Part shown: positions 16,305 to 58,600 of the stretch, in pieces
Layout of the letters: each line of letters starts with the position of its first letter
Numbering within the stretch: the first letter of the stretch is position 1
Source of the DNA: Styela clava
Lineage: Eukaryota
Length of the DNA stretch: 64,000 nucleotides
NCBI RefSeq assembly: GCF_964204865.1
Contig: NC_135250.1
Location: 25,358,001 to 25,422,000, forward strand
Direction of reading: 5' to 3'
The notes under the pieces: generated by a model
Told to the model about the DNA's origin: nothing
Seen by the model: the letters and a program-made list of their open reading frames with translations, nothing else
The model's database searches: none
Program-made: the position numbers and the translations under genes

Positions 16305-19300
16305 TCAGGCGTTGTAAGATTCGTAAGCTGTTTCCAATTGTGTTTGCTTAGTTGTCGCAGGCAGAGCTTGTTCGTAACCGGCAGTTTCTTGCAAGACATT
16401 TGATGATGATGGTTGTTTGTAAGCTAATTCTACTTGCGTTTGCTTAGTTGTCGCAGGCAGAGCTTGTTCGTAACCGGCAGTTTCTTGCAGGGCATTTGAT
16501 GATGATGGTTGTTCGTAAGCTGATTCCACTTGTGTTTGCTTAGTTGTAGCAGGAAGTGGTTGGTCGTATCCGGCAGTTTCTTGCAAGACATTTGAATATG
16601 ATGGTTGTGAAGCTGGATTGTTGGGAGGAGTTGCTAATTAATTGAAAGAATGTAATTAGCAACAAACAAAAATCGATTTAAAAGACTGATCTTGTAGAAA
16701 TCAGATCTAAGTAAACCTGTGGTAGACAGTGTGTTAAAATAATAATTTTTTAAATAAAATATCTCAGTTTTTTTCTATTACTTCATAGAAGGTTTGTTCA
16801 CAGACCAATCTCTTTCAAATTTTTAGTAATTTAATGGGCGTGACTCCTAGTAGGGCTTTAATTTTATTCACTTTTTATTTGCGGTGGCATTCCAATTTTG
16901 TATAAACTCGAGATATACAAATTGTATTGCCCCACTATTAGAACCTGTATTGATTGATAAACGTTTTCTATCCCATTAACATTGATGGCATGTGTTTATC
17001 ATTGAAGTGGAGTTAAAACTTTTATCGTGACCGTATTCTGTTGTGTTTATACACTTTGAATGACACTTCGAATTTGATTTTATGGGAATAATATTTTATA
17101 CATCAGTTCTGATTATTTCTCACTACCTTTTTCTTCTATAGTTTCGTAATTATGTTCTTTTACTTCTGCCTTTTCCTTCAAATTCATTATTTCTTTCTTC
17201 AATTTGTATATGATCCAGACAGAGACGACCAAGAAGACGAAAGGAATGAGAAAACCAATCACAAAACTGATGATGTTGAACCCGAACGCTTCTTTTTCTA
17301 AAACAAATACGTTACTCTGATTTCCCGTTGATATTTAAAGGTTTTGGGATTATAGTTTTATTAAAATTAGCAACATCATCTCTAGAATTACAAAGATAGT
17401 ATATAACGTTCACAATAAAAGAACACTTTATTCTTCTTTCAATTCTCAAAACTATTTGCTTGTTATCTTGTGTTGTTTGAAGTTTGCTAATTTTTTCCAT
17501 AATCTGGCTTTGAATTAACCAAATCTGAATATTTGTTATTCTTACCGGTATCGTTCTTAGCAGTAGTTTCCTGTTCACCTTGTTTCAACGTTATAGAGGG
17601 GCTTTGACTGAAATGTATTTGGTCACCAGAGGGCGTAGAATAAACTATCGAGACACTGAAGTAAAATAAGTTATATTATGCATTGCGGAAATAAATTCAT
17701 TAAATGAAATACTGATAAAAGATCCGATATATTATATTTGATTTGATAGCACTATTGAATAGGTAAATCAATCTAATTTGACGTTAACATATATCTTTAC
17801 TTTCTGTCGGTTTTAAAATAGCATTATAACAATACCAAAACTTTCGATTAAAAATTAAAAGTCTATGATGATCTATATATCCCTAAGATATATCTGGAAT
17901 ACCTGAACGTCTTTTTATCTAATTTTTTGTTTCTTCCTGTGAATAAAATTTCTTTTCCACGACTTTGTTCATTTTGTATCCCTGCTTTTCCGGTATTTAT
18001 TACGTCACATGTAGTCATTGATTCTTCACCGAGTGTAATATTCATTCTCTCCCAATTCATGCTAAAATATTTTATTCAATGTAAAATAGAATATGGTATG
18101 TTATGCAGGAAATACCGCTGCTACTCGAGACAATAGAAAAATGACGTTGCAACGACGCATACAAGTATATACAAATTGAAACTCTTAATATAGCAGTATA
18201 TATGAATTCAAAATACATGAAGGGTGCGGTGGTACGCACATACGCGGTATCAAAGTATCTTGTTGCATGTGCTTTGTATATATTATAGCCAAAAATTATT
18301 GGAGTAAAGTATTAGTAGTACAATGTGTTTCGTTACGGTCGTTAGAAAATTCAACGTCAAAAATCTTATAAACTCTACAACAAATAATCGCTGTTGTCCT
18401 GATATATTACATAATACATCCACTAGCTAGACGTAAAATCACGTTAACCGGGTAATCTAATTAAATGTTACTTTTTAATTGGCTTTGTCGGATTAGCAAC
18501 CAGAAATAGCAAATGAAACAAATCACCCTAGTACTTCTTACGAGTGGGACTTTCACCCGATCTATTAATTTTAATTTTACAAATAGAATTTTAAGTTGTT
18601 TATCTTATAAATCGTATTTTTTGTTTATAAATCCTGTTCAACTGAAAACACCCAATTGACAGATCACGTAGAATATTCTTCTGGAAAAAACGATTTCCAA
18701 CCTTGTCATAGGTATTGCTTTAGCAATATATTCATCTCCGCTCACTGTGTTGTTAATATTTATCATGTCAGTCATAGAAAAGTCGTCGTCAAGTTCCTTC
18801 AAATTTGTGTGTACAAGTACAAATATGCAACTGAGGTAAATAAATTATACAATATTAAAAGTTGTACTGATAGCACTATTTGTTGAGGAATGAATTCCGT
18901 ATTGTGGAATGATATTGATCAAAATAAATCAAAACTTCAGTGTCTAGTAAGCAAAGTGACTGTATTGGTGAGAGAGATGCTTAATATACCTAATATGATA
19001 TATGAACATGCTCGGTCGATTTTTATTCCAGGCTAACTATCAACCGTAGAGAAACAGACGTATTAACTTTTTGAATACCGATATATATATTATTTTCTAC
19101 TCTGTTGCATTTAGCTTACCTGACAAGGCCATTAGTCTCATCCGGTGCCTGTATTGCCAGTTCTTTGATGCCACACACGTTGATTAGGTTATCTTCAAAA
19201 CTTTCAGGCGGAAAAATCTTTGTAGGAGCTAAAACACGAGACAGTGTTTGCTAAAATAAATTGCGACAAACATGCTTACGCATTTTCACATATATTGGTT

Positions 19301-22300
19301 TGAATGGAGTTGTTAAGTAGACGGGTAATTGCAAACTTGATTTCACAAATATTAACTTCTCAATATACCTGTAGGTTTTCCTAGACAAGTGCCAGCAACC
19401 AATAATTCTTGACCAAGACCAGCACACTTAAATATTTTGATCGAAACAGAATAGTTACGATTTGGTTCTGGTTGAAATGAATACACGGATGATGATGTCA
19501 CGTTTATTAGTTTCATGTCTGTCTTCAAGTTCAAATCTCGCGACGAAGCCAGGGTTGAAGTTAAATTCAGTTCCTATAAATCATCAGATAAAAGTATTGC
19601 ATCAGAAATATTGAAGTTTTTATTTTAAATTTCCTGAATATGGGTTTCAAATGAATTGTTGAAGATAACGTAATAAACCAAAACTTCCAGATAAGTGGAA
19701 TATGATTTTGATATAAAAAATTGATAAAACAATATCTGTCATTTATATCAGTGGACCAAAACAGATTTACGATCGTAACAATAGAGTGGATGGCTGTAGA
19801 ATCAGCCAAACTTCGTGACACAGAGTGAAGTCATATTACACGTATAAATTCTCAATCCAATTTACACACCATCAACCAAGTTGTTGTAGGACATGTGTCT
19901 CAAATAGTTTGTGTTAACAATGCAATTATCGACTCACCACGGTATAAGAATCACCAGTCTCTGTTTTGTTATATAAGATCCATGAGATGACGCAAGTTTG
20001 CGTATTCTTGTATTGTATAATAGATGACGATTCAACAGATAACTTTGATCCGCCTGTTCTTGCGCTTCGGATGGTAGAATATTTGGTTGGACAGTTATCC
20101 TTTGTTACACATGCAGTTATCTGAAATTTATATTTAACAATATAATAAAGCAACGTATAATTTGGGTGAAGTGGTCAAGTAGCTTAGAACGTTTCGTACG
20201 TATTCCTGAGAGAGGAGACCTTTTGCTGGAAGTAGAACCCATGCAATAAAAATTATAAAAAAAATGATCGTTTACGATATATTGAAAAATTATTACTTAC
20301 TTTGATTTGAAAGGTTGTGTTAGGTGACAAACTGGTTATAGTGGTTGACTGTTTCTCAGATGTTGGTGAATCCACCCATCTTGTTGATTCACCTGAGGTC
20401 GGACTTACTTCTATTCTGTGAAACAGATGTGAGTTGACAGTGACAATTTGATGGAAGTAAAACAACTTGTAACAATATGCGTAATGGTGTTGGGTACACG
20501 GGTCGTAACCAACATGATAGAAATACATGTTGACACTCACCAATACGTCTAATAAATTTAACATCGTAACTTAAGCAGCTTCTACCGTTATTGGACACGT
20601 TTAGTGGCCATAACGATCGTTTCAAAATTTTGTTGTTATTGTTTAATGTTATTTGTCTCCGTCTCCATTTTTAAAAAATCGCTTTTCTCTTCGAATACTG
20701 GACCAATTGCTTTAATATTTTCAGTGGTTAAGATAAAATTTTTCTCCAGAAGGCTATTACTTTTCTTTCGCTATGACGTCATCAAAATTATTGCCACTGG
20801 GTGGCGCTACGTGTCCATATATTTGAGCATAGCTCTCTTGTCTTAGATGACATTATATCATTGTTGTGAAAACGACTATTGACTTAGATTTGTCTAAAGG
20901 CATTTTCGGTTCGGAGGAAGAGATGACGCATAAACAAGATGTTGAAATTTATGCCTTAATATTCATAAAGGTAAACTCACTTGTGTGGGAATCCAACAGC
21001 ATTTGTATGTGGTTGCCATGAGATGATCAAGTTAGAGTTGCAGACGTTATTGGATATTTGATGGATTGTGGGATTTCCAGCCACTAGAAAAGTAAATACC
21101 AAAAAATTAGCTGACAGAACTTTCAAAATTTAGAGAAGATCGTTATTTAAATTCACCCTCATATGATTCAGTTGTAGTTTTCTCGGTTTGGCCAATTCGA
21201 TAACGACAACTATAAGATCCCGCATCTGCAATATTCGAATTTTGAAGATTCAATGTTGCTGATCCAGTTTGTATCGTTTGGTAAACTCTACTTGTAGTTG
21301 CGGTTGATACTTTGTTAGATGCTTTGTACCAATCAACTTGTGTTGCAGTGCTGCATTCTGTCGCAGAACATCTTTTCTGGTTTCCACTGATTGTTTGTAT
21401 TCTAACGAACGGGCCCGGAAACACTGAAGCAGAATTTGTGAATTTGAAGCCGTAAATAACACAAATTAGTTTAAAATATGAAAACTAGGTTGATTACTTT
21501 GGTTCATGCAGGCAGAAACACTAAACTTTGAAAGTATCATGATTATATTTTTAGCGGATAAAAGCATTTTTGCGTTGATACTATTAGGGCAACTCTGTTT
21601 GTTACAAAATTTAAATTAAGTGATAGAAGCGCAATAATTCTACTATAGGCATTCAGTGGCACCGAAAGACAATACTCTCGTATCGTATACGGTACTTGTA
21701 TTGATGTGACCTGTATTGAACAGTTTCAATAGAATATTGTTAATTTGACATTTACTTCAAATCATATTTATCGTGCTAGCTTATAGGACAGGAGTTTATA
21801 TATTTGAGTTTCGTTGAGGGCAGTGCGGGTATTGTTACTGTAGTGTTCTGGGTACCATAGCATTTCCACAGTTCAAGCTTCTTTCATGATATCGTATGAT
21901 TTTTGTGGAATTGTTGGAATAGCTTTGATTTCTATATACATATATTTGTGTTTTGCTCTATTGTTTTCTTTAGATAGAACCTATGCAACTTGATACGTTT
22001 CCTTTACCTTCAGTTGAGCAAGCTTGCATATTCAAACCACTTGTACGATACCAGAAAAATTTACGACAAAGCTAAAAAACCCATAAGAATGTCATTATGA
22101 GGACGAGTTATACAAGTCTGTTATCAAAACATAGCCATATAATGAATTCATTGAATAATGAAACATCAATGATACCTATCTTTCAAATTGAGCCAAAAAT
22201 AGAAAACCGAGTATTACCTTTCTGGCAAATGTAGAAGAAGTTTTCATCGCAAGATGAATCAACCCACAGGTACGTTTGTCTGCCAACTGTCAGACAGTTT

Positions 22301-25202
22301 TCACCAGTCCCACCATTTGGCTGATTACCTTTCCTGATAAATTGAGAAGCCGTATTATTTAAGTGTAAAATTTATGCGCTTCCTAAGCAATGGCCATACA
22401 GTCTTCAACAGCATTATTAACTGCAGTCTCACCATTCGGTTGATTATATTTCCTGATAAATTGACAAGCCTAATTAATTAAGTCTAAAAATTAGGAAGGC
22501 TCTGATGAACTAATCTGAACCAAATTTGTTAACAAGATGTTGCGCAGATATGGCTACCCATTATCTATAAATAGGAGAAGTACTGATATAATAAATATGA
22601 AATTAAAATAAATTTTGGCTTGGCATAATTTATCTCATTTCCCTTACTGTTATCATCTAATAAGGTTTGTCAGCATTTCACCACTAAAAAAATGAATTCA
22701 ACTACGGCAGTTAATGAATATCATCATTGAAGTCATGCCGAGGTATTTCTCTTTACTATAATATTGATAATAATTAAACTGCATGGTATACGAGATCAAA
22801 ATTCTAATTCGCTCCTTAAATAATTTTATTTTTTTCATTTTATTTTTGCAACTTTTTTAAATAAACTTGAAAAACAAACCAGTTTTGATATCCTGCTTCT
22901 CCTCTCATTGTCACATCAGTACCATCCTGCCATTTCCAATCTCTTTCTCTAGCTATGTCATTTGCTCCGATGTAAAAGGTGTTATCTTGATGTTGTATGC
23001 TAAGAATATAAAAACCTTATTAGTTTTTTTTTAAGAAAATACCGGAGCCATCAATTGAAAATTAATAAACGACTGAGGGAAGAGCTGAAATATACCACGG
23101 AACGCTAAGATAGCTAAATATCCTTTGTGTGATGAAGCAAAGTAGTAATTAAAAAACGTTGATTATGCCAGGTAGTCAACAGTTAGTTCTGGTGTTTTGT
23201 AAACTTGAATGTATATGTCTAATTAGTAATTACTGAAAAAACTCATTGCGTATAACAATTTTCGTTCAAGTTTATTCAAATATAGTAACTTGTAAGCTAT
23301 GAAAATTTCATTGATTCTTGCTTTTATTCTATTTACGAATAACTACTGGCTTCAATACAGCATATCCAAGGTAAATAAATTGCTGTGTGGAAATTAACAT
23401 AAATACTGCGGCTGGTTTTACGATTATAATGTGAAAATAATGAAGTACATATTTGGAATTATCCCGATCCTACAACATGATTCCTAAAAGTAAAATAAAT
23501 CTTTAGCTCTCGTACATCACTGTACAAACAATATCCTATTTCAACTCACGTATATAATAAGTGTTTAATCTACATCAAGGCTGCCCAACCCGCGGCCCGC
23601 GGTCCGCATGAGGCCCGCCAGACTGTTTTTCGCGGCCCGCCCTATAAAGTTTGTAAGCAGAATTTTTATGTTTGTACTATGTTATTCAATTTATAGGGTT
23701 AAGTAGGTTTCGTGATTTTGGAGTGATTATTCCTGCCATCTATCCACATTCAAATGCCGGTTTTTATTATTTTGTATGTGTCAAGTCTTGCACCCTGGTA
23801 GACATCGACGTCATTTTTTTTTATTTCTCGCAGAACTGAGCGTTCTGTTCGACGGACTCGAAAGATATTGTGCAATCATTGAGGACGAACGCTGAGCACA
23901 ATTATGGGAATGAATTTTGAGCCTAAATTTGCAGATTAATTTCATTCTGATTGATTTCTTACGTGTCTGCTTTGATCGTCTTTATCTCCAACGTAACATA
24001 AAAAGTCAACGATATCTTTGGTACTGGTTCTGGGAACGTTGTCCTTTTATGTTTGTGATTTTTTTTTCAAATGTTTGGGTTAAATAAGATTTCGGAAATG
24101 TCGTCACTACGTATCCGTCAATAATTCTAATGAAATTGACTTAATGGCATTGCTGCATATTGGCCACGAATCAGTATATATATAGGAAATTCGTCCAGAA
24201 ATCTTTGTAATGTTACTTCATTAAATATTTGCATTGGCGTTCCAAATTTTACAAAACGACCGATTAAAACTTGATATTTCTGCGACATTGGCACACATTA
24301 TGCTCATTTAAACATTGAGGCAGTATCATAGCTACTGAAAATGAATGAATAAAAATACTATAACGCAAATATAACATTTAATTTCGACGTGATGTGTGTG
24401 TTTTCGGGTGTCATCAAGAAAGTTTCATGCCCACGCCCCGTGTTACCAGATATTCGAATAATTTGCCAGCCCTGCTTAGTAAACAGAAAGCAATTTTTAA
24501 CTTGATTGATTTGATCTTAATAAGCTTGACTTTTATGTATTACATAAATTACCTACACCGAAATCAGGACCTATAGCTGGTATTAATGTTTGGTACAAAC
24601 GTTTGCGGCCCGCAACGAATTTCGACTCTTGAAAGTGGCCCACGAGACGAAAAAGGTTGGGCAGGCCTGATCTACATTGAGATGGTACAATGTTCAATAC
24701 ATAGAACAATTCACATATTAAATAACACCAAGATATCAAAAATAAGTTTCTTTCTAACTCACTCGAATGCTGAATTAATGACTGTCGTTATTCTTTGATC
24801 ATCAACTTTAGTCAAGTAACCTCCAAATCCTTCACAAGAAGATTTTGCCTCGTTGTAAGTTTTACGTTGTTTGAAAAAAAGCAGTTCAAACCCATCAACA
24901 CATTCTTTCTTCCAGGGATCTGAAACACAACGGTATCTGGAATTGTAATCAGATTCAAATTTCAACAATTGAATAAATAACAATTCTCATTTATTACCAT
25001 GAAATTTGAAGAATATGAGCTGAGGTTTTTCCATATATTATAGAAACATTTGCATTTGTCCGAGAGAAAGCAACCTATTCATAAACAAAATGTTGGACAG
25101 GAAAAAAGCAAATGGGTTTTTTCATACAATATTCAACTAACCTTGGGCTGAAGCACTTGTGATGATAATCGAGACAATTATCACCAAAACAGTAGGATTC
25201 AT
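16305..25202 (-). CDS. Receptor copy B: CTLD(QPN)-Ig-FN3-FN3-RPTP-like membrane-proximal domain-TM-tail with 3x32-aa Tyr repeats; 15 exons, 766 aa
   Basis: Exons 25202-25142, 24919-24763, 22999-22880, 22333-22218, 21423-21157, 21083-20981, 20415-20301, 20120-19938, 19573-19369, 19228-19120, 18830-18702, 18061-17903, 17655-17579, 17297-17127, 16633-16305. All GT-AG with matching phases; total 2301 nt, single terminal TGA. Confidence 0.9.
16321..16608 (-). repeat. Coding minisatellite, 3 x 96 bp, encoding QPS(Y/S)SN(V/A)LQETAGY(D/E)Q(P/A)LPATTKQTQ(V/L)E(S/L/T)AY(E/K)
   Basis: T(C/T)GTAAGCT recurs at 16321, 16417 and 16513 (period 96). Confidence 0.95.
20591..20841 (-). mobile_element. Non-autonomous Helentron/HINE-like element (AACAAGAGAGC..ATATATGGACAC family)
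   Basis: Absent from the paralogous intron of copy A (empty site CCGTTTTCTTAG near 2505). Inserted in a T-run without a TSD; subterminal GGACAC/GTGTCC inverted repeat. Confidence 0.55.
22389..22452 (-). pseudogene. Orphan truncated duplicate of CTLD exon 4 inside intron 3 of copy B
   Basis: ATCAG|GAAATATAATCAACCGAATGGTGAG.. gives (W)KYNQPNGETAVNNAVEDCMAI, then fuses to intron sequence (GCT TAG stop). It matches the copy-D-type exon. Confidence 0.85.
23576..24669. mobile_element. Non-autonomous hAT element (~1.1 kb) in intron 2 of copy B
   Basis: TIRs CAAGGCTGCCCAACC / GGTTGGGCAGGCCTG; 8-bp TSD ATCTACAT at 23568-23575 and 24670-24677; empty site in copy A at 4983-4990. Confidence 0.92.
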
Positions 25203-29014: not shown

Positions 29015-31584
29015 CTAATATTCACACAAAGCTCCCATTCTTGTCCATCCTGGACTAGCATTGTGCAAACCTTGATCTATTGAGTGTTTATCCAGTTTAG
29101 AGACTAAGCCTGTCAAGGTGTAATCTGAGGGAGATTTAGGATACCCGGTGTGCCAAGGTAAAGTGGGTGCTCCAGCTCCGTTTGAAAGTATCGCTTTTTT
29201 AGTCTGAAACATACAAACAAATGAAACAGCAGCAACCTACGAATCACACTATGAAGCTTAAATTAAAATACTTAACTGTACGATTATGTACCGGTATATA
29301 ATCTGCATATAAAAGTAATATTTTGCTAAGATTTTAGGTTTGTTCTAGACCTAGACACTATCTGACGGAGGTAACGAAAATTGTTAGCTATACTTACTCT
29401 TGTGTTGTAGTACATTCCAAGCCATACAACAACAGTTCTCGATTCCTTGCGTAAGTATTCGAGTACTAAGTTGTAGTGTTCCATTGAGTAGATATTTGCT
29501 AGTTCCCAACCTTTGGATTTGCACACATTCTTAGCTTCTGGGTATTTCACATCCGATATTTTATGCAAAATAGCTTGAAAGCATTTCCCGTTGTATAAGA
29601 ACGTTGAACAATGTTCTGAAAAAAATAAACTTTTTCAAACCCAAAGTTAATACTTTTGTGCTTTGAAGCGGTACAAAAGGTAGAGAATGTTTTTTGACTT
29701 TCAATACGATTATGAATGTTATCTAAATATATTGGTAACGCAAGATTAGGATCAATTACATCCAATGGTTAATCCCAAGTATACCACCGCAATAGGATTT
29801 AATCAATTGGGCCGGATGAGCTGAACCTAAAGCACGACTGTCATTATGAAACGTTATGGTAATGAAATTTTGCTCGAACATGATTATAAAATAGTATTTT
29901 CAAATAAAAAATTTTCATTCTAGCAAGATTCCACTCAAAAATAAATTCTTTTTATTTTGCCAAACCATATTCTCGCACATACACACCCTTGTTTTAGTCA
30001 CCCTGCACAAGTTTTTGCGCAAATAACCCGTCAGAAAAAAATTTAAATCTGGTTTACGCAGTCTATTTTATTTAGAATCTAAATGTAGTGAACTTTGGGT
30101 CGACCAGGTTTTAAAATTTAAGATGACTCGCGTCACTGTGAGTCTTGTTGACTCTGGTCGAAGTTGAATCAATGACTCAAGGATCCCTAACATTGATGTC
30201 AACTATAATTACAGAAATGTTATCAATCATTAACCAATTGGACACGACGTGGTCGTATGGATCGTTTTGTTATTATGTTGTTGTTGTTGTTGTTGTTGTT
30301 GTCAGTCATTTGCTTCTTGTTGTTACTTTATGAAAAAAATCACTTCTCTCATGCGCTACTGGGCAAATTGCTTTGAAATTTTCAGTGCTTGAAGATTGTA
30401 TTTTTTTCTAGGAGGCCATTACTTTCATTTATGAGATTTTTTGATAGGCTACCAGTAACAGTATGTACGGTACGAAAAGTGCTTTGTTTTAGATTTCGTG
30501 TCCATATATTTGAGCATCGCTCTCTTGTTTTTGGTTGAAACTAAAAACCAACAAACCCAATGTCTTATGTTCAATTTTCATAGTTGTGTTGCTCAATCTC
30601 GCCAACGTATTTTCAAATTTTTCTTCCATTTCATCGATCCTGGCGCGGAGAGTTGTAGTTGCTATAATATAAAAATGAATTTTTATTGAAATATTTTGTT
30701 TGACATCATATTGTATTGCACCAAATGTAATACAACTCTGTAAATGTAATATCATTTCAAATATTATTCATGCATCTGGAACAAATAACTGGCTAACTAA
30801 TCCCATACCCGACATGGACTGGTAACCGGAAGAGTGGCCGTGGTATGATTAAGCCGCCCTATCGGCTTTCCACTCTCCGGGATAAATATGTAAATGTCAT
30901 CCTATTTTTACAACAGGGATATAATCAAAAATATATACGGTAACTCTGATTTATATATATTCTGTTTTTGATAATTTGTTGGAAGAGATACGAAACGACA
31001 AACGCGCATGTGAGAGATGATTGCAAAGCACATCATTTCTTTATTTTGTCAAATTTCCATTCTGATTTCGTGTTTAGAAGATACATTCTGAAAAATCTTT
31101 CTAAAACATGATCTTGTGATGTTTCTGACTAAAGCTGACTATAGTACCCATTAGCCTCTGGAGTCTCTCCTCTTTCCCTAAAAAAAAATTGCATTGTCCG
31201 TCACGGACTGATCAAGAAATGCCATTGATAATTATATAGTAAAAACTTACTCAACTTAAGAAAATTAAATTTTGTTCATCCCACAAAAAGCCATGAATTC
31301 ACTTTACCATTCACAACTTTTGCTTCCAGCATATCATCGACTAGATTGTAATCTACGGTTCCTTTTGGTCCAATTACTCCCCTGTCACCTTTGACCCCTG
31401 GTGGACCTCGCTTTCCAGGTCTTCCTTGAGTTGATTGATTAATTGGTGACATTACTGGGCCTTGTGTAGTCAAAAACAATGAACATATCTTTTGACAAAC
31501 TTGTTGTTGTTGGTCCGCAACGACGAACGAACGAGTTACCATAACCAGAAAGAGAAAAATGATAAATCCAATTAAATCCTTCAT
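29015..31584 (-). CDS. Secreted collectin-like protein: signal, Cys-containing N-term, short collagen (~8 Gly-X-Y), coiled-coil neck, CTLD; 4 exons, 262 aa
   Basis: Exons 31584-31308 (MKDLIGFIIFLFLVMVTRSFVVA..VCQKIC..GRPGKRGPPGVKGDRGVIGPKG), 30661-30557 (LRARIDEMEEKFENTLARL), 29615-29398 (CSTFLYNGKCF..AKNVCKSKGWELANI..VWLGM) and 29203-29015 (LPWHTGYP..GALCEY*). Phases 1/1/0 are consistent; 789 nt. Confidence 0.88.
30238..30529 (-). mobile_element. AACAAGAGAGC..ATATATGGACAC family element with (GTT)n microsatellite, in the collectin intron
   Basis: Same ends and internal blocks as 20591-20841. Confidence 0.6.
30778..30906 (+). repeat. Probable SINE-like 3' fragment
   Basis: GC-richer island (GGACTGGTAACCGG..GATTAAGCCG..ATCGGCTTTCC..GGATAAATATGTAAAT..CCTAT) in an AT-rich intron; no tRNA head seen. 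Confidence 0.3.
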
Positions 31585-33489
31585 TCTGTATCCCAACTAT
31601 TAACTAACAGAACACAAATACTTGATGATTCAATTTTATCGCGAAGCCAAAATCGTTTGCCGATACTATACATAAAAGTTGACTAATTTAATATGAACAC
31701 ATAGTCATCGCTTATATCAATTGAGATCGCTATGACAGAATATATTATATATTTCCACCAAGGTGTCCCAAACCTTATGCTTTTATGATCTTATATCCAC
31801 ATTCAAATACCTTGAAATGCCTTAACATAGCTTATTGAAGTAAACTGACAAATCTGACTTGCCGTGGAAAACCATTGAACTTGGAGGATTATTTTTAACA
31901 GTCTTCTCACCTTCCTGTCTCAATAACACTCGGGTAACAATGTAAGAATCAGACATTTCAACTGTGTTTTTGGTGTTATAGTCTTAATGGCGTTCTCATA
32001 TTGCTAACAATGCTGTCTAAATTTGTTTAAATCAAGTACTTACATATTTAAATAAATATTCTAATTTTTTAACCGTTTAAAACCAGGAAGTATGTGTGGG
32101 TTAAAAGGAAGTTAGCTGACATTTTCAATGGGTAATTCTGAGTGGATACAACATTTAACCCTTAGAAAAAGGATGGTATTTCGATTCTACAAAGCAGTAC
32201 ATTGTACGCGAAGTCAGCAAATTACAAAATATCAATGGTCAAATACATGGACACGTCATTCAAATGTCAGTGTTCCCTCGTGTGATATAAAATTGTTCCT
32301 ATGAATTTAAATAAACTACAAAATTGAGGGTGATACACTAGGTCCCGCAAGTCTAAGAGAAAACATAAAAAAAAGTTGGAAAATTATGAAATAGATCATT
32401 TAACAAGTTAGAGAACTAGGTTTCCCAACAAAATAAAACGTTGACTCTAACTCTGGAATATTCTGCTTTCAAAAACGAGTCATTGCTATATTCCGAGCTA
32501 ACTTGAATAAATATTCGAAATACTACGCGCTGAGAGCTTACACCAACTTTATAGAAACGGGTCATTTATTGGTTCTCTTGCTGCAAACTTACAGCGGAGT
32601 TGAGTCTATTTTGATCGGGCCAAATTTTTGGTGTAAATTTTGCAAACGGTGTGCGTGACTAAAATTTTCCAATCTTTTATGTCTTGTAAATGTGTCAGAT
32701 TGAGTTGAGTTTTTCAGTTGATAGAGTTTGCACCGTAGAATGTGGATATTATTCACCTAAATTATAGGGAGTAACGAGTGGGAATTTAACATGCCCATTC
32801 CTCTGCCCATTCCAAGCCCTGAACGGCTCGATGTCCGTTAAGTCTATGACCTCATAACGACGGCTAACGTCATATTGGAGGAGTTTGATCGGGGGCCACA
32901 TGGTACGATACCTGATTGAGAACTTCCGCAGTTCGCACGTTCCGTTGTTTGACAATAGGCTTATAATTTATCGAGGTTTAATGGTATAATGGAAGCAAAC
33001 AAACAGCAAAGTACTGTATTATCCAGTTCTTTCAAAAGAAACCCTGCGGTAAAAACCAAAATAGTGGTGTTGACAAAACAGAGACTCCTGTTTCAACCTT
33101 CACAACATGCCTCGAAAAGACCTTGTAGCAATGTTGATATGGATCACGCAGAAACAAGAAAAAAGACTTTAGTAGGTAGTATGATGAGAAGTATTTGGAG
33201 ATAGATTTTACTATTGCTCCCAGCAGCAAAAAGTATCGCTTCCCATGTGCCTAATCTGCGCCAAAATTCTCTCAAACGACGCAATCAAACTCGCAAAGTG
33301 AACGAAATCGTGTGGAAGTCAACGCTCAACTTCGTCTTGCAGAAAATTCATTAGAACCGCGTTTAACACGTATAATATCAAAAAGACAGCAGCAAATTTC
33401 TCAATAAATTGGATTGTCTTCTATTTGCACCGCCTACTCTTGTCGTGATTGCATTCTCTTGATTTTGTTTTGTGTTCATGACATTTTTG

Positions 33490-36679: not shown

Positions 36680-38061
36680 TCAAGATTCCAATACCTTACA
36701 CAAATTATCAATATAATATTGTCTTTTTCGTTTATCGTTGAAGGATATTTTGAAAGCTTGGCCTGAAGATCATCATATCTTCTATTGTCTCTCAAAGCCC
36801 AATATAGTAAGTGTTCAGCGACACATCGTCCATTTTTACTGTCGTTATATTTTAATAACGGGTATCAACATATATCCAACGTTTCTGGCGGTTTTCAATT
36901 TTTGTCTTCAAGCCTTTCTTGCAATCAAAGCAACAAATTATCTTTAGTTTGCATTCCCTCGTTGAACTCAAACACCGCTTGATGTACGTCCCTGTTTGTT
37001 TTGAACATTTCTCCATCCTGTTTTGAAAGTAAATCATTGCTCACGCGAAGTGTTCTCCACGCATGTCTCATTTCATATAAGCATTCTTCAAATCTAGTGT
37101 ATTCATAATCTTCGAAACGAATGCCAAGTTTCCAAAGATTATTTTTCATTTTGATTTTCCCTCTTTCCTGGTCAGTTAACCATTCCAATATTTTTATCGT
37201 GGCTTCATTGAGTTTGCAAGAGGATTTGTTAAATTCTAGGACAAATGTACTATTATAATCATTTCTAAGTTTTGTAGCAAAACGTGTTCCGCATGCAGAA
37301 ATACTGAGTGCAACGAACAATAAAAGAAATGATATTAATGCAAAGGGATATATTTTAATATACAGGTCTGTGTAGCACAGAAATGCGCCGGTTCCAACAA
37401 CCGTAGTCTCCCCAGCGAAAAGAATGCATTCAAATGCATTGGATTGGTATAGAGAGTATAATATTATGAATAATACATCGAGAATAAATGCAATGGCCGA
37501 TACAATACAAGACAGCATGCATCTTCTCAAATAATACTTCTTAATATTCTCTATCTGTCTGTTCGGCCTGTCAAAGTTGTTTACGATTACCAGATAGCAG
37601 ATCTCCAGAATCTGATCAACCTTGTTGGCGTTGACTTAAGGAATAGTAACAGCTTTTTCAAGCTCGTTTTTGCTTACATTTTGCCTACCTAATCCTTTGT
37701 CAATTTGTTTTACGTCTGAAAACATCCTTGCTACTTCAGAGGACAAAATCCGGCTGGAAAAGCACAGGTATAAAATAACAGAGGTTGCCAATGACAACAT
37801 ACCCAAAAGATCTATTATGACGCATCGTTGCGATTGAGAGAACTCATTGGATAAAGTAGACTGTTTGATAATTAAATTTGTAAGTGCTTTGTTAGGCGCA
37901 CACATTGTCGAGAATGCCGTTGTTTCGATAAATATCAGAAGGAATGAAGTAATATTCATGCCCCGCATATTATATTATTTTATTTTTTCCCACCATGGCT
38001 TGAAAGGAGACTCATCCAATAGTTCAGGTTCAATAATATCGGCTGTACCAATGGACGACAT
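36680..38061 (-). pseudogene. Intronless LRRC8/pannexin-like 4-TM channel gene with putative C-terminal death-fold domain(s); in-frame stops
   Basis: One frame from ATG 38061: MSSIG..PFKPWWEKIK*YNMRGMNITSFLLIFIETTAFSTMCAP, ungapped against LRRC8A [36 protein letters not shown] (recalled from memory). Four hydrophobic helices with 2 Cys in each extracellular loop. Stops at 37977-37975, 37638-37636 and 36927-36925 join the two listed ORFs in the same frame. The 3' end is approximate. Confidence 0.75.
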
Positions 38062-41863: not shown

Positions 41864-44800
41864 TTAGGCGTTGTAAGTTTCATAAGCTGTTTCCATTTGT
41901 GCTTGCTTTGTTGTCGCAGGAAGAGCTTCTTCGTAACAGGTAGTTTCTTGTAGCACATTTGAATATGGTGGTTTGAAAGCTGGGTCGTTGTGAGGAGTTG
42001 CTATATAAGTTTAAAAAAATGTTTAATTGAAAAATTCCAATTTGATTTAATTTGAATAATTGATAAGAAATAAAATTTATGTATACAAATGGCGCGTAGG
42101 TAGATTCTTTCAACTGTTTCATAATCTTTATTTTCTGGACTTGGAAAAAAATACAAACAATGTGAAGAATAACGTTTGTATAGAGACTTTCTGTACTACT
42201 GGACTGAAATACCGAACCATTCTCTGTCATATTTTAGCAATATAATATGATCACGACCCCGAAAATGGCATTTAATTTATATGTTTTAGACAATTATTCC
42301 CATGCTCTTCCAAATTTGTTTATATGTATGTCCACACATTTTGTCATTGCCAAAGGAAAAAATAACTGGAGAATATCAAATTTACTTATTTACAGTTAAA
42401 AATGATCAATGGGTTGATCAGAACTATTTTTGTATAAAACGGAGATTTTTAAATCTGCATTAATTCTCAGTACCTTTTACTTGTATAGTTTCGTAATTAT
42501 GTTCTTTCGTTTTAGCATTTTTCTTCAAAATCTTTATCTTCTTCATCAGTTTGTATATGATTAAGGCAAACACTACGTAGAAGGTCAAAGGAATTAGAAA
42601 ACCGATCATAAAACTGATGATGTTGAATTCGAACGGTTTCTTTTCTAAAAAATTACATTATTTTAACAAAAACTCAAAATTAAAGTATTCCCCTATATTA
42701 TTAAAGGTTTTAACAAGCATAAATCATCGCTTGTTGAGGGAAATGACATAATCATCATTTCTAAAATGAACATTTGAATGACATTAATCCCGAATTGAAA
42801 GAATAGTTTTCTGAACAATATATATTATAGTGCATGATTCCCAAACTTTTATTTTTTATTTTTGAAGAATATGTTTCACATCAGCTGGAGTCTGCTACAA
42901 TCATAAGTCACTGTCCTAAAGTTTTGATTGGAAAATTATATAGTTCTCAAAACATAATCATTTAGTTTCCTTTTCCCTTGAAATATTTCCTGAAACTTAA
43001 TACCGATTAAGGTTTTAGACGAAATCATTAATACAGTATGGTTTATACAGTTCTTTTAATATCGGTCAATTAAAACCAAAGAAAACGTATCAGAAAATTC
43101 TAACATCTCGGCCCATAAACGAGAATTAGAACCTAATTTACCAAAATCTCTACAATTCCAGTTCCTCATAAATTTCATTTGAGTGATTGAATTCTCAATC
43201 ATCACTTCCAATTTAGTTTGATAAGGATAAAAATTTGAAGGCGTAATTAGTGAATCCAATTTATACCTGTTGGATTTCCCACACAAGTACCTTTGACCAG
43301 CCAAACGCAGTTGAATATTTTCATCGTAGCGGAATAGTTACGATTTGGTTCTGGCTGAAATAAATACCAGGACGATGACGTCACGTTTATTAGTTTCGTG
43401 TCCGTCTTCACGTTTAAATTACGAGAGGAAACCGGGGTTGAAGTTAGATTCAGTACCTATAAATCAACAGATAAAAATTTGCCTCGTGAATACTCATGTT
43501 GTTGTACCGACTTCTGCAATATATATTCGTTATATTCTTCCCTGAAAATGCCTTGTTGGTGGATAAAAAAAGATCTTAAAGCTAGTGCAAACGACCCAAA
43601 TTTCAACTTGATATGAATCAAATATAAAATACAGTATTGTAAAATCTATACATCATATTCGTTGACAAAGACAGATAGAAATACGTTCGTTAGTAATTGT
43701 GTGGCTTTGTGATAAGTCAGAATTTCACGGTACGGATAATTTCTAAATTCAAATTACATATACATTTAGCCCAATCTTTGAGGAAAAGTGTTTCGTCATT
43801 CATGAATGCAACAAGTGACTTACCACAGTATATGAATCACCACTCTCTGTCTTGTTAGATAAGATCCAAGAGATGACGCAAGTTTGCATATTTTGGTACT
43901 GAGTAATAGATGACGATTCAACAGATAAACTTACTCCCCCTGTTGTAGCACTTTGGGTGGTGGAATATTTGGTTGTGCAATTATCTTTTGTTACACATGC
44001 AGTTATCTGACAAGAAGGGATTTATGAATACATTGAACTCAATCGGACATCAGCTAAGCGACACAAAAAAATTAGCGGCAAAAGCAAGATAAGGAAATGC
44101 ACCGAATAAAGGGGCGAAAGATTTAACGCAGCAACAATACCAATAAAAACATTAGGTATGTATTCACTATGAGCACTATTTCAAACATAAACTGTCGGAT
44201 CCGGATTTTACGCTTGATAGTGAAAATATGAGTGTTCAAAAGAGCAAACCCTGCTTCAAACGTTAGAGTGATTCGAATAGAGACACATTCTGCCAAAATA
44301 GTCGCACAGAATAGGTGCGGAAAAAATTAATAGGTTTGTGAACAATATGATGAAATATTTAATATTGCTTACTTTGATTTGATAGGTTGTGGTGGGCGAC
44401 AAACTGGTTATTGTTGTTGACTGTTTCTCAGATGTTTGTGAATCCACCCATCTTATTGAACCACCAGAGGTCGGATTTACTTCTATTCTGTAAAACCGAA
44501 GTGAGTTTACACTGACATTAATGCAGGAAACGAGTAAATAATAATCATCCATGTAGCCCATTTTCTCTTTGGGTGAATAGTTGTAGATGTGCATGAAGAA
44601 TCATCGGACCTTTATATAATTTAGACAATTTGCTTCTACGCTGTTTAACATTATGTATGACTGGTATCGGTGTATCGGGTTGTGACCAGAGTGCTGAACT
44701 CACTCGCGCTGACGGTGCAGAATGACGAATCGGGTTCAATCCTCATATCAACATTTTACTAATAGAGGTGATAATTATGAAAAAGCAAACGGAGCAGCTC

Positions 44801-47057
44801 CGCTCTTTATGTTGCGGGACACTACAATAATTACTATAAAAATGGCCACAGATTTTGATACATTGTTAAGCTACTCGTATGCTTGGTGAAAAGGGGTGAG
44901 ATATGACAAAATCTTGCAATCAACGCCTGAGTATTCATAAATATAGACTCACTTATGTGGGAATCCAACAGCATTTTTATGTGGTTGCCATGAGATGATC
45001 AAGTTAGAGTTACAGATTTTATTTGATATTTCATAAATTGTGGGTTTTCCATTCACTGCAAAGTAAATAAAACAATAATGTTAACGAACGGGTACTGATA
45101 GATGAGCTTATATTTATTTAATTACCTTCATATGATACTGTTTTACTTTTCCAAGTTTGGCCAATTCGAAAACGGCAACTATACGATCCCGCGTCTGCAA
45201 TATTTGCGTTTTGAAGATTCAATGTTGCTGAACCTGTTTGTATCGTTTGATAAACTATACTTGTATTTTCATTCGATACTTTGTTGGATGCTTTATGCCA
45301 TTCAACTTGTGTTGCAGTGCTGCAGTTTGTTGCAGAGCACATTTTTTGATTGCCGTTGTTAGTTTGTATTTCAACAAGAGATCCTCCGAATTCTGATGCA
45401 GAACGTTTAAAATTTGTCATAAATGAGACAAATTGATTTATGGAAGGCTTGTTTATTTTCATTGCTTCCTGTTAGCGGGTACGCTGTACATTAGAACCAT
45501 CTTAAGTATTTTCATACCAATCAGAATTGATGAATTTTTAATGAGTTTATTAAAAAAAATAGAAAAGGCCATGACAAGTCCTAATAATTATCTTTTTTCT
45601 TTTGTCGTTTTTAATTTTATTTATTTTCTTCTATTGCTATAATAGGCAGTCAGTGACACCAACTTCCGTATATTAAGTCGAACGAATAAAAATCTCAAAG
45701 TTACCTTTTTGACAAATGTAGTAAAAGTTTCCATCACAAGATACATCAACCCACTGGTACCACTCTCTGCCAACTGATAAACAGTCTTCATCGCCGAGAC
45801 TGTGGCTCCCGCCGTTGGGTTGATTACCTCTCCTGTAATATTTAAAATCACGACTACTCACTTTATGAAGAGAAAAACAATAATACAATCGTTTCCGAAT
45901 TGTCTATGTTTTCAAATTTTTGTAAATAAAAGTAAGAAACAAACCAGTTTTGGTATCCTACTTCTCCTCTCATTATCACATCAGAACCATCCTGCCATTT
46001 CCAATCTCCCTCGTTAGCTCTGTCATTTCCACCGATATAAAACGTGTTTTCTTCAAATTTTATTCTAGGAATATATATTTCTAATTTGTTTTATAAAGGC
46101 TTGCTTTAGAGAACTTCGACAGAAGAATTTAAATGCCCCCTTATTCGCTAAAACCTATGTTTCACAGTCCATAAGCAGAAAAGACGTTTTGAATAGTACG
46201 TGCCCAATTCTTCAGTTGCAGTGCTGAAAGTCCATTCGATCAGAGACTTAACCAGGGGGTGATTTTGGGAGTCGGACCCCCATTTGAAATGTAAAAAATA
46301 AAGAAAAAAACAATTTTTTTGTGTCAAACATAGCAGCTTGAAACACTTGTTAGACCCCCAAGACCCATGAAAACACACGTTTCCTGTCGGACCAGCCATT
46401 GGTATGTTATAAAGAGGAAATTCGAAATTTCAGACCCTACCCCATCAAATTCCTGGCTACGCCCCTGCATTCAATTGTAATTCATATTATAAATAGCTTC
46501 GACATAACAAAAATATTTTTTATCAACTCACGGGAATGCTGAATTAATGACTGTCGTTATTCTCTCATTATCAACTTTCGCCAAGTAACCTGCCAATCCT
46601 TCACATGAAGATTTTGCCTTGTTGTAGGTTTTACGTTGTTTGAAGAAAAGAAGTTCAAACCCATCAACACACTCTTTCTTCCAAGGATCTTAGTACGAAA
46701 TATTTGTCATTTATATATATCTTTTTTAATATTTAGCAAAATTTATTATAACACAACTATTTGTTTATTAACATTTTTTAATAGGTTGAGAGTAATGGCC
46801 TCATTAATTTTAAAAACTGATCAAATATATTGTGTTCCTCATGCAAAAGAAAATTGTTACAATGAAAACATATATCTTAGTGATAGTGTTGACAAAACAA
46901 AATTATACTTTTTCCAACTATACAAATCCTATTCCTAAACAAATTGTGTGAACAAGACATAAACAAATGTTTTAGTTACAATACCTAACTTACCTTGACC
47001 TGAAACACTTTTACTGATAATCAAAGCAATAATCGCAGAAACCAACCTAAAGTTCAT
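41864..47057 (-). CDS. Receptor copy C: CTLD(QPN, longer loop)-Ig-FN3-FN3-TM-tail with one repeat unit; 11 exons, 544 aa
   Basis: Exons 47057-46994, 46688-46532, 46064-45945, 45832-45705, 45392-45126, 45055-44953, 44487-44373, 44006-43824, 43456-43267, 42644-42474, 42000-41864. All GT-AG; 1635 nt; ends ..PYSNVLQETTCYEEALPATTKQAQMETAYETYNA*. Confidence 0.9.
46241..46467. mobile_element. hAT-type MITE in intron 2 of copy C
   Basis: Ends CAGAGACTTAACCAGG / CCTGGCTACGCCCCTG; TSD CATTCGAT / CATTCAAT. Confidence 0.7.
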
Positions 47058-53570: not shown

Positions 53571-55655
53571 ATGAACTATAGGTTGATTTCGGCAATATTT
53601 TCCTTGATCATCAGTACAAGTATTTCAGCTCAAGGTAAGTAAATAATCATAACTAAAACATTTATTTGTGCATAGTTTATACAATCTGATTAGGAATAGG
53701 ATTTGCATTGTTCGGAAAAATACAATTTTGTTTTGTCCACACTATCACTAAAAGTTTTCTTTTGAAAGAATGAACACAATATATATATTTGATCAATTTT
53801 CAAAGTGAATGAAGACATTACTCTCAACCTGTTAAAATTTAAATGTTAACCCATTATTTCCCGCCAATCTGAGCCAATTTTGACACCCCTTATTGACAAA
53901 TAGTTTTGTGATTATAATAACTTTTCGCCCAATATTAAAAAATGATAACAGTGACAAATAATTCGTCTTAAGATGCCTGGAAAAACGAATGTGTTGATGG
54001 GTTAGAACTGCTTTTCTTCAAACAGCGTAGAACTTACATGGATGCAAAATCTTCCTGTGAAGGAATGGGAAGTTACTTGGCTAAAGTTGATACTGAAAGA
54101 ATGACGGCAGTCATTAATTCAACATTCGGGTGAGCAAGGAAAAATCCACTTTTTTATTATGGGTTATTTCTTATTCAGTATACATAATGAAAAATGTGCA
54201 GTTAAGGCGAAAGGTGCCAGCGTAGCTACTTTTTTAACATTTTAAGATCTTGCATCAAGATTCATAGTATTATTTATATGATATTCTGGACAGTTTTGCA
54301 ATTTCAAATAATTTAAGTACTTCAATTACCTGACAAAAATTTCAGCGTTTACAAAATTTGCAATATTCGAAAAACTTGCAACTTTCGAAAAATTGCAGGT
54401 TGTCTTAAATTATTTTTTACATGCATTAAATTCTTATAACAAGAGAGCAGTACTTAAATATATGGACACATGAGGAAAAAAATGGGAAATGGATCATATC
54501 TTTTACCGGTAATATTGTTTTCCCAACTACGGTTGACCACCGCAACGCAACGGTCGTAAACGTGGACCCGCCATGAGATGATCAGACAAAAAATTATAGT
54601 AAAAAATTAATCACATGATGTCCACTGCAACCTTCGAAATAAATAAAAGTAATAAATAGAGACAACAGCCATATTCAAAAAACTAATTTCAAAGTATTTG
54701 GTAAAGGAGTTGGGGAGAAAAGCAACTTTTTCACAGCTAGAAAAAAATAAAGGATACTAAAAACAACATCTTAACAACATAACATAAGAGAACTTCAAAA
54801 TATTCCAATTATTTTTCGAATGAATTCAATTTTCATAAAATTCACACTCATCATAACTTTTTGTTACTAAATTGTGGTATTTTCTCCTTATTATATACTA
54901 AATAACATATAAAATATATTTTGGTCTTAGCGAGTCAGTGGTTGCCTCCTTCTCAATTTAAATTGAGGAGCATAATCCTGTCTTTACATTGAAAAAACTA
55001 TTTATATATTCTTAGCATACAAAAGAAGGAAAACTCTTTTTATATTGGTGGGAACGACGTAGCTAACAAGGGAGATTGGAAATGGCAAGATGGTATTGAT
55101 GTGATCATGAGAGGAGAAGCAGGATATCAAAACTGGTTTGTTTGTTACTATGCCCTCAAAAATTGGAAGAAATTAGGGTGTTATATTCGCAGCGTAAATT
55201 ATTCTCCAAAGCTCATAGGCGTGTAGTTTTTATTATCATTTGTGTCAGTAACTTGTTGTAAGTCGTAGACACAAGCAATTGAGTAACTATGCCGAGCTAA
55301 AACATATTGTAATCTTCTCATACTCAGTATCTGCATCGTTACCTGTTAAGTGAATAACTATTCACCAATTACATTTGATTGAAATTTATACGAAGCACTC
55401 GATCTAAAGAATATTGTTTAAATTGTTTTTTTTTTCGAACTAGCTTGATTTTTAGATTTAATAATCGCGACTTCTGAATTTACCAGGAAATGGATTCAAC
55501 CAAACGGCGAGACATCAGCTAACAAAGCTGTTGAAGACTGTTTGTCAGTTGGAAGAGAAACGTACCAGTGGGTTGATGTATCTTGTAATGGAAAATTATA
55601 CTACATTTGCCAGAAAGTTAAGAATAATTTTTCATGTTCGTTCCAGCTCAATTAA
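53571..55655 (+). CDS. Possible secreted single-domain C-type lectin (169 aa) from copy D by read-through of the dead exon-4 donor
   Basis: Four intact exons (64+157+120+169 nt = 510 nt): signal peptide plus complete CTLD ending ..YICQKVKNNFSCSFQLN*. Confidence 0.45.
54438..54790 (+). mobile_element. AACAAGAGAGC..ATATATGGACAC family element (degenerate) in intron 2 of copy D
   Basis: 5' AACAAGAGAGCAGTACTTAAATATATGGACAC and an (AAC)-rich 3' part; the end is approximate. Confidence 0.5.
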
Positions 55656-58600
55656 GCGAAGATACTCATTAAATCGTCGTGAGGTGATACTCAATGGTAA
55701 ATCTCTTAGAACAAATCCTAATCTTTTGTGATTTGTTCTCTTACTGGTATTTTCTACGATTTACGATGATAGGTCGGTCTTCGGGCTTATAGTTTTTAGT
55801 TCATCGCAGATTGCATCAAAAGAAGTAGACCGGTAGACCTGGTTGCTAGTAAAATATAAATATATGCAAATAGGCAACTGTGTAGGAATATATATCAAGG
55901 CAGGTAGTCATTTTAGGAGTATTCTAGAAAGGAAGGAGGAATGTAACTGACTAAGACTTTATTCTACTATTTTATATCCAATTCCAAGGCCCTTCCACTG
56001 AAATACTAAGCATCAACGAAAACCCGAGAATGTGTACACCAACAAACTGCAGCACAGCGACACAAATTGAACGGTACAAATCATCTAACAAAGTATCAAC
56101 CGCAACTACAAGTAAAGTTTATCAAACGATACAAAATGGATCAGCAACATTGAATCTTCAAAACGCAAATATTGCAGATGCGGGATCCTATAGTTGTCGT
56201 TTTCTAATTGGCAAAACCGAGAAAAATACAACTGAAACATATGGAGGTGAATGTAAATAACGATATCTGCCTAATTTTTAATCTCTTTCCTGTTTGCGCT
56301 AATTTTTTGGTATTTGATTTTCCAGTGGCTGGTAATCCCACAATTCATCAAATATCCAATAACGTCTGCAACTCTAACTTGATCATCTCATGGCAACCAC
56401 ATACAAATGCTGTTGGATTTCCGCACAAGTGAGATTATTTTTATGAATATTTAGGCATAATTTACAAAATCTTGTTTATGTGTCATCTTTTACTTTAAAC
56501 GAGCCTGTCTATTCAAGCCGCTTTGTAGCATGTCATAATATGACAATGCTGAAGCGTCAAGTGTCAAATTTTTTCAAGTATATCAATGTCAACTTGGACT
56601 TGAGTATCAATGATGAGTTTATAATGATTTATATTGTTCAACGGTTCTGTTTTTTGTAGAATTGAAGTAAGTCCGACCTCAGGGGGATCAACAAGATGGG
56701 TGGATTCACCAACATCTGAGAAACAGTCAACTACAATAACCAGTTTGTCGCCCACCACAACTTATCAAATCAAAGTAAGCAATAATGTTTCAATATTGTA
56801 AAGTGTAAACAGCCAGTTATTTTTTTCATTAGTTCGTGAGCTCTAATTAGAGCAGAAGATATTCTCTTTTCGGAATACGTTCAACATGCTCTCACTGACG
56901 ACTGTGTCCAACTTATATGGTGCTTTACTATAAAGTAAATATAATATTTTGTCAGATAACTGCATGTGTGGCAAAATATAAGTGTCCGAATAAATATTCT
57001 GCCAACCAAAGCGCAACAACAAGGGCAGGAGCAACCGTATATGCAGAATCGTCGTCTATTATACAGTACAAAAATACGCAAACTTGCGTCATCTCCTGGA
57101 TCTTTTCTAACAAGTCCGAGACTGGTGATTCATATATCGTGGTAAGTGAATATTTGCACTGTTGATACAAATTATTCAAATCGCTTTCACAACTTGGTGG
57201 ACGATGTATACATTGAACTTGCTGATTAGCCGCGTAATACGAAGTGAACAAAGGGTCATGAAGTTCACCTGATCACACCTTCATCCATTTTTCGTTACTC
57301 ACAATCGTAAATATGAATTAGCCCGATATACTGGCATATAGTGTTCAATAATACTTTATATTTGTATTCGAATCCGAAGTTTTGGTTTACGATACCTAAC
57401 ATTCTTATTTGTCATCAATTTTTGACGGCATTTATAGATCAAACATTTAGCAATCGAAACAATATTTTGAGTATTTCTCATGCAAATGTTTAACTGTTGA
57501 TTTATAGGAACTTAATCTAACCTCATCCCTGGCTTAATCACGAGATTCAAACTTGATGACAGACATAAAACAAATAAACGTGACGTCATCATCAATATTC
57601 CGTTTCGATAAAAATATTCGATTGTGCTGGATTTGATCAAACTGTAAGAGTTACTGGTACTTGTCTAGGAAATCCTTCAGGTATATGATTAAAGTTAAAT
57701 ATTAATAATTCATCTTAAGCATGTTTGTCACAACGCATTTGAGAAAACATTGTCTTATATTTTAGCTCCTGCAAAAGTTTTTCCGCCTGAAATTTTTGAA
57801 GATGTTCTAATCAGCGTATGTGGAATCAAGAAATTCGGAATACAAGCACCAGATGAGACCAATGGTCTTGTCAGGTAAGCTAGATGGAACAGAGTAGAAA
57901 ATGCTATAAAGGTAATTATTTATTAAACAATTAAGTACGTCAGTCTTTTTATAAACGACAGTAAAAAATAGGTTCATATTTTATTATGTATCAAAATATT
58001 GCGCATCTCTTCTACCAATATAATCACTCTGCTTAATAGACACCAAATTTCAGATTCATTCTGATTATTATATTGTCACAATTTCGACATCTTCAGCAGA
58101 TATTCCACTTTTCCTATTATTGCTTAATTTATTTGTTTACAGTTGCATATTTGTACTCGTTCACAAAACTTTGAAGACATCTGATGACGTACTTTTTATG
58201 ACTGACATGATAAAACTTAACAATACAGTGGATAGAGATGAATATATTGCTAAAGCAATATCTGTGAAAAGGTTAAAAGTATTTTTTTTTTCGAATTCTA
58301 CATAGTTATTTGAGTTGACTATGTGATTTCATGTAAATGATATTTGTCCAATTGAGGTGATGGATGTTATATATTATGATATGAGATTTTGTTTAAAGGT
58401 CATACCGGAATATATCATCGGAACTAAATGAATTTGTCTCTTTTATGCTACGCATATTTACGCCGTTCGCTTGAAAATCACATTTTTATCCGTGTGAACT
58501 GCTATGCGTTATTAATAATCAATGCTTACAATATTTTGAATAGCATCGGTAATTCTGTATAACAGATCATTGTGTAATCGCCATTGAATATTTTAGCGAG

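Follow-up and report, generated by a model that had tools for sequence, protein, structure and literature searches.

A broken channel gene in Styela clava and a family of LRRC8-type pores without leucine-rich repeats

A broken channel gene and its intact paralog

The window examined here, 64,000 nucleotides of the Styela clava genome (contig NC_135250.1, positions 25,358,001 to 25,422,000, forward strand), carries a pseudogene of an LRRC8-type channel that lacks leucine-rich repeats (LRRs) at window positions 36680..38061, minus strand. The copy is colinear with an intact 463-aa paralog, P0003 (G000:C1:25663699-25665087, 270 kb away), and intron-free by that comparison. Its start ATG lies at 38061 and the final stop matching that of P0003 at 36680-36682, and its stop-to-stop open reading frames (ORFs) comprise 112 and 236 codons. 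When the 236-codon ORF was searched against the whole genome (380 contigs totalling 377 Mb), 11 matches were returned, P0003 among them, as the initial annotation had anticipated in suggesting intact paralogs elsewhere. The two genes are 82% identical over 1,585 aligned DNA bases, with a dN/dS of 0.68 (CI 0.51-0.95), and the pore dN/dS is below 1 for both broken copies compared.

All features of the pseudogene lie on the minus strand. The KPWW motif (37990..38001) stands at the start of the first transmembrane segment (TM1) and aligns to LKPWW of LRRC8D. TM1 itself (37918..37995) has limits transferred from the paralog's model, and TM2 (37744..37821), TM3 with the family's Y-x-x-R motif (37456..37545), and TM4 (37270..37365) were placed by model and hydropathy. 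Hydropathy of the window copy is clear for TM2-4 and weak for TM1, and the AlphaFold model of P0003 has four long helices (predicted local distance difference test, pLDDT, about 86-98), in agreement with the four segments originally proposed. The first extracellular cysteine (C54, 37900..37902) and the two of the second extracellular loop (FEC and FLC, 37375..37434) are invariant. At the position of the second (C75, 37837..37839) the window copy has serine (TCT). All four are cysteine in 67 of 67 aligned relatives, a set that leaves out the pseudogene itself. The 2+2 cysteine pattern first described (MCAP, QRC; FEC, FLC) thus holds for FEC and FLC and was mistaken for QRC, whose cysteine is glycine in the intact paralog and serine in a third copy.

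Two in-frame TAA codons interrupt the gene, one at codon 29 (37975..37977), which truncates the protein within TM1 and is also present in contigs from the same sample, and one at codon 142 in the intracellular loop (37636..37638). Compared with P0003, three frameshifts (near 36937, 36866, and 36726) fall in the distal tail (36680..36937), a compensating pair of 1-nt changes lies near 37160-37168, and two further indels are in frame. Reading through two stops to merge the ORFs with the upstream KPWW segment, as first done, was correct as to the stops and the motif and missed the frameshifts and the compensating pair; the tail segment given as ERLEDKN(W)KTARNVG is a splice of two incorrect frames, and in the frame agreeing with both paralogs it reads CCFDCKKGLKTKIENRQKRWIY. 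Short-read contigs of the same sample show no difference from the window in the pieces covering the lesions (a comparison not independent of the assembly), so the lesions are not assembly errors.

With five frame-breaking lesions and C75 lost, the window copy is far more likely a pseudogene than a null allele, the two options initially left side by side. That the gene is open in other individuals is quite improbable. A 229-nt contig from a third sample, possibly derived from RNA, is exact over 37029-37246 and might speak for it, but it spans no lesion. The proposed check for open alleles yielded, besides this piece, eight reads of a second individual from thin Hi-C coverage, only one of them 99% alike, which is too little coverage to type alleles.

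A family of LRRC8-type pores without leucine-rich repeats

LRRC8A-E, the VRAC (volume-regulated anion channel) subunits (PF12534 plus LRRs), are the best sequence and fold match of the family and share with it KPWW at the start of TM1, four transmembrane segments, four extracellular cysteines, and the intracellular subdomain. The family differs in having no LRR domain, in helical tails that are variable or absent, in an identity of about 14%, and in its size: mammals have five genes, whereas the family counts at least 37 single-ORF loci. Profile matches to pannexins and innexins are not significant (E 0.25 or worse), and their fold score is 5 Z units under that of LRRC8, whose specific motifs the family retains; Pfam Innexin had no match in the own-genome members scanned, and a search that aligned LRRC8D gave no pannexin or innexin at E up to 10. 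A gene family whose pore domain is homologous to LRRC8 and which carries no LRRs is supported, in line with the channel assignment first made. It resembles the LRRC8 pore yet lacks the repeats by which membership of LRRC8 is defined.

The genome was searched twice, with 32 and 36 matches that together mark 41 places, of which 37 loci were examined and four others stand outside the count. A full pore in a single ORF is present at 25 of the 37, two of these ending soon after TM4. No LRR was found by Pfam in the 19 full-pore ORFs scanned (the remaining six resemble them), and a motif scan of 384 kb around the window found no segment with two LRR motifs, which bears out the reported absence of an LxxLxL repeat after TM4. 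A vertebrate-type LRRC8 pore query matched nothing in the genome, a result specific to that query and no proof of absence, and the sole genomic match of PF12534 is a member of the LRR-less family. Family members, most of them with short tails, also form tandem clusters at G000:C1:2.85-2.91 Mb and 3.43-3.60 Mb.

Word-index homologue searches returned 1, 2, and 2 matches, and a library-wide HMMER search 107 relatives, the first with LRRs ranking 48th; LRRs occur in 12 of the 86 scanned. Of the 123 proteins, the 104 of at least 280 aa went into a quick tree (midpoint root only). One branch (SH-aLRT 99) separates all 15 own-genome rows from all 12 rows with LRRs. The LRR-bearing side also includes 22 rows of a second LRR-less group and an Actinia tenebrosa 'LRRC8B-like' protein (XP_031575248.1, 432 aa, from a database gene model), which has an LRRC8-type pore and no LRR match, so LRR-less forms are not limited to the clade of the own-genome rows. 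Such forms are already present in databases under automatic names. The only named close relative is the uncharacterised S. clava LOC120335091 (675 aa; 41% identity, E 8.5e-48), sister to the window copy plus P0003 in the tree (support 99), which differs in that its intracellular loop contains a long, Gln-rich tandem repeat and that it has almost no tail. No description of an LRR-less LRRC8-type family was found in searches of the open-access literature.

The ORFs might instead be the pore exons of ordinary LRRC8 genes, spliced to LRR exons downstream. A distant member, L044, does have an LRR ORF on the same strand about 0.5 kb past its stop, but LRRD1, leptospiral LRR proteins, and SHOC2 match that ORF (E 1e-49 to 1e-39) far above LRRC8A (2e-23). 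Given also that the 384 kb around the window hold no LRR-like segment and that LRRs are missing at the ends of many relatives taken from assembled runs, there is only a very slim chance that splicing accounts for the family. The ORF behind L044 (L102:761-1567, G000:C1:5.784 Mb) was also considered as a relic LRRC8 tail, which is not favoured, its repeats being nearer the LRRD1/SHOC2 type than LRRC8.

Tails of the family

Behind the pore, members either stop at once, carry private tails, or have one to three copies of a helical module of about 105 aa. The module occurs in 18 of 123 proteins, six of its rows coming from the own genome, one of them partial (five G000 proteins by profile; L143 added by eye from motifs). 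In P0003 the AlphaFold model of the full-length protein gives the tail nine helices over 165 residues at low confidence (pLDDT 46-69). In the window copy the tail includes a helical segment (37051..37134), the one initially seen as death-like, whose start probably marks the end of the LRRC8 intracellular subdomain and whose key residues are not the same in the intact paralog, and a distal part that holds HLLYWAL, a weak match to the module.

The initial annotation took this tail for one or two death-fold domains coupling the channel to death-fold signalling. The nine modelled helices would allow it, and E-M-x-x-A-W is present in two of three copies, CLYEMRHAW of the window corresponding to CLNGIKYAW in P0003 and CLNEMKDAW in the third copy. 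Against this, the Leu that follows Met in the genome's own death domains is Arg or Lys in these segments, and the second segment cited was the wrong-frame translation described above. Pfam Death (PF00531) had no match in the read-through, P0003, its tail, or the other members scanned, nor was it among the families shown (at most five per protein) for 86 of the 107 relatives; of its 12 matches in the genome, none is on the window's contig. A hidden Markov model of those 12 domains, which scores its own members at 17-105 bits when each is left out in turn, gave at best 3.5 bits among 112 stored proteins, -1.1 for the window read-through, and a score below reporting for the P0003 tail. HHalign of the tail with the same domains reached a probability of 0.4%, with 14 of 60 shuffles equally high; the family's separate repeat module, aligned to the death domains, scored 15.4 and so exceeded all 60 shuffles, but its probability was 1.2%. 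Resemblance to the death-domain superfamily is thus confined to a helical tail, all sequence tests being negative; a death fold is not supported by these sequence comparisons, and the signalling fusion appears most unlikely.

A tentative alternative is that the tail is what decay has left of a 105-aa module and that the module is a divergent ankyrin-like repeat in place of the LRRs. In L044 the module is modelled with confidence (pLDDT about 80-93 across much of residues 300-600) and shows paired helices and short strands. HHalign of the module with the genome's own ankyrin repeats scores 29.7, against at most 13.7 in 60 shuffles, at a probability of 62%. Ankyrin-bearing clusters are among the language-model neighbours at 0.89-0.90, which counts as a lead only. 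The P0003 tail aligns to the module with a score of 19.7, reached by none of 60 shuffles, and the match falls at HLLYWAL, the expected place. That match is weak all the same (3.1 bits, E 0.66; HHalign probability 4%), the module profile had no PDB match at E up to 10, Pfam Ank had none in 17 module members, and ankyrin rows in a viral-library fold search were not significant. An ankyrin-like module with a remnant in P0003 may therefore be regarded as a lead from sequence comparison. Both structure models are of full-length proteins, and all five fold searches were filled by pore matches or had no significant match; the lists contain no death or ankyrin chain and, being filled by the pore, are uninformative on the tail. 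Searched against the own genome, the tail found three sister copies and one chance-level match in a reverse-transcriptase-like ORF; it had no match in the 112 stored proteins, PDB sequences, or the ESM Atlas.

Several further members and relatives vary in tail or loop. In L052 (G000:C10:15.37 Mb) the module-bearing tail runs on in two further frames past a 448-aa ORF and is either frameshifted or spliced. One member lies in two pieces 26 kb apart (L048:4271-5686 and L049:4437-5282; G000:C1:26.10 and 26.13 Mb) and has a long 18-aa tandem repeat in its intracellular loop; the Gln-rich repeat of LOC120335091 is different and sits in the same loop, hence independent expansions at one site. Three relatives (P0057, P0100, and P0108) have other tails on LRRC8-type pores: a Lingula 'tenascin-X' (XP_013407927.1) has the pore ahead of 19 FN3 stretches and may be a fused gene model, and the other two give weak OTU-like matches (E 0.003-0.006).

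Receptor neighbourhood and proposed function

The immune cluster named in the initial annotation finds its counterpart in tandem receptor genes around the window copy. Between 25.32 and 25.67 Mb lie 16-20 of them, each with C-type lectin, immunoglobulin (Ig), two fibronectin type III (FN3), and transmembrane parts followed by cytoplasmic Tyr motifs. The same interval has nine channel loci, of which three are intact and six broken, and a collagen-lectin gene in several copies. One receptor gene with its cytoplasmic Tyr motif is at 42463..46689 on the minus strand; further receptor stretches are at window 520-5300, 17100-24930, and 53970-57160 and at G000:C1:25.32-25.64 Mb. A collagen plus C-type-lectin-like gene (29018..31596, minus strand; lectin label by eye) has copies adjoining five of the nine cluster channel loci. 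The pattern is one of segmental duplication with birth and death. The receptor genes are a candidate polymorphic immune receptor family; an identification with Botryllus FcoR was rejected, FcoR being described in PMC12582321 as three Ig domains plus a Sushi domain.

We favour, at a probability of about 0.68, the reading that a single-exon gene was duplicated and the copy in the window died, while the intact paralog would encode an LRR-less, LRRC8-like subunit of a large-pore channel, probably gated by its tail. By homology to LRRC8, the paralog would form a membrane ring of six or seven subunits, predicted to pass anions and small organic solutes. At the extracellular constriction, where LRRC8A has R103, the mouth residue of the paralog is Phe, as in LRRC8D, for which PMC9399500 describes a wider pore, and only 3 of 67 rows have Arg; by that analogy the mouth would be wide and weakly anion-selective. 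In PMC5064130 and PMC9399500, LRRC8 is described as the product of a pannexin-like pore joining LRRs when chordates arose. Its gating is described as driven by LRR movement, and the intracellular subdomain of LRRC8A as passing that motion to the gate (PMC13586329). Because the subdomain is retained, a different tail could drive the gate, and the family-specific helical tail has probably taken over that role. Gene turnover would proceed by birth and death through segmental duplication.

A number of observations weigh against this proposal. The main objection is that LRRC8A without its LRRs is described as giving smaller currents and being trapped inside the cell (PMC9399500), so that a subunit lacking LRRs might depend on a partner or fail to conduct. 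Pannexin_like (PF12534) scores P0003 under the cut-off (16.6 bits, E 0.004) and had no match in the X-bridged window read-through, a Pfam scan of which, with its two ORFs, gave nothing relevant. The placement of the mouth residue comes from a backward count, starting at a cysteine, made with the LRRC8D alignment. Tail dN/dS for the two broken copies (0.73, CI 0.45-1.25; 0.79, CI 0.48-1.33) is not clearly below 1, no RNA run on record contains the stretch, and 28 of the 37 channel loci lie outside the receptor cluster.

With so many loci elsewhere, the linkage to receptors may be hitch-hiking, and an immune role of the channel family is no more than suggested. A signalling function, with cells that bear the receptors releasing ATP or cGAMP, for example, has the least support of all the steps and is rather doubtful. 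A serious contender, if short of an even chance, is that the family serves ordinary volume or ion homeostasis as a substitute for canonical LRRC8, the immune-receptor neighbourhood being a by-product of segmental duplication. The failed vertebrate-type query, the single PF12534 match, the 28 outside loci, and the six broken copies in the cluster all fit this account. The failed query does not prove that LRRC8 is absent, though, and each intact gene of the cluster has a tail of its own, the two besides P0003 being only 26-27% identical to it, unlike a simple recent duplication. The most far-reaching version seems unlikely: ascidians would have a large and so far undescribed clade of LRRC8-type channels whose LRR sensor gave way to ankyrin-like repeats or to fast-evolving private tails, and one sub-clade would be duplicated along with the lectin/Ig/FN3 receptors and act as a receptor-triggered pore that releases immune messengers such as ATP or cGAMP. 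If true, different sensors could be joined to the LRRC8 pore, which would then be a modular effector.

As a dead gene, the window copy matters solely as a pointer to the family. At least 25 full-pore, LRR-less LRRC8-type genes with different tails, in what is likely a close relative of vertebrates, are a natural test set that allows trafficking, assembly, and gating of the pore without LRRs to be tested directly and bears on which came first. The family also offers candidates for the volume-modulated chloride current that ascidian embryos reportedly have (Villaz, 1995, by its title). Within the receptor cluster there is also a 642-codon ORF at G000:C1:25454643 (plus strand), which we take to resemble a hAT-type transposase.
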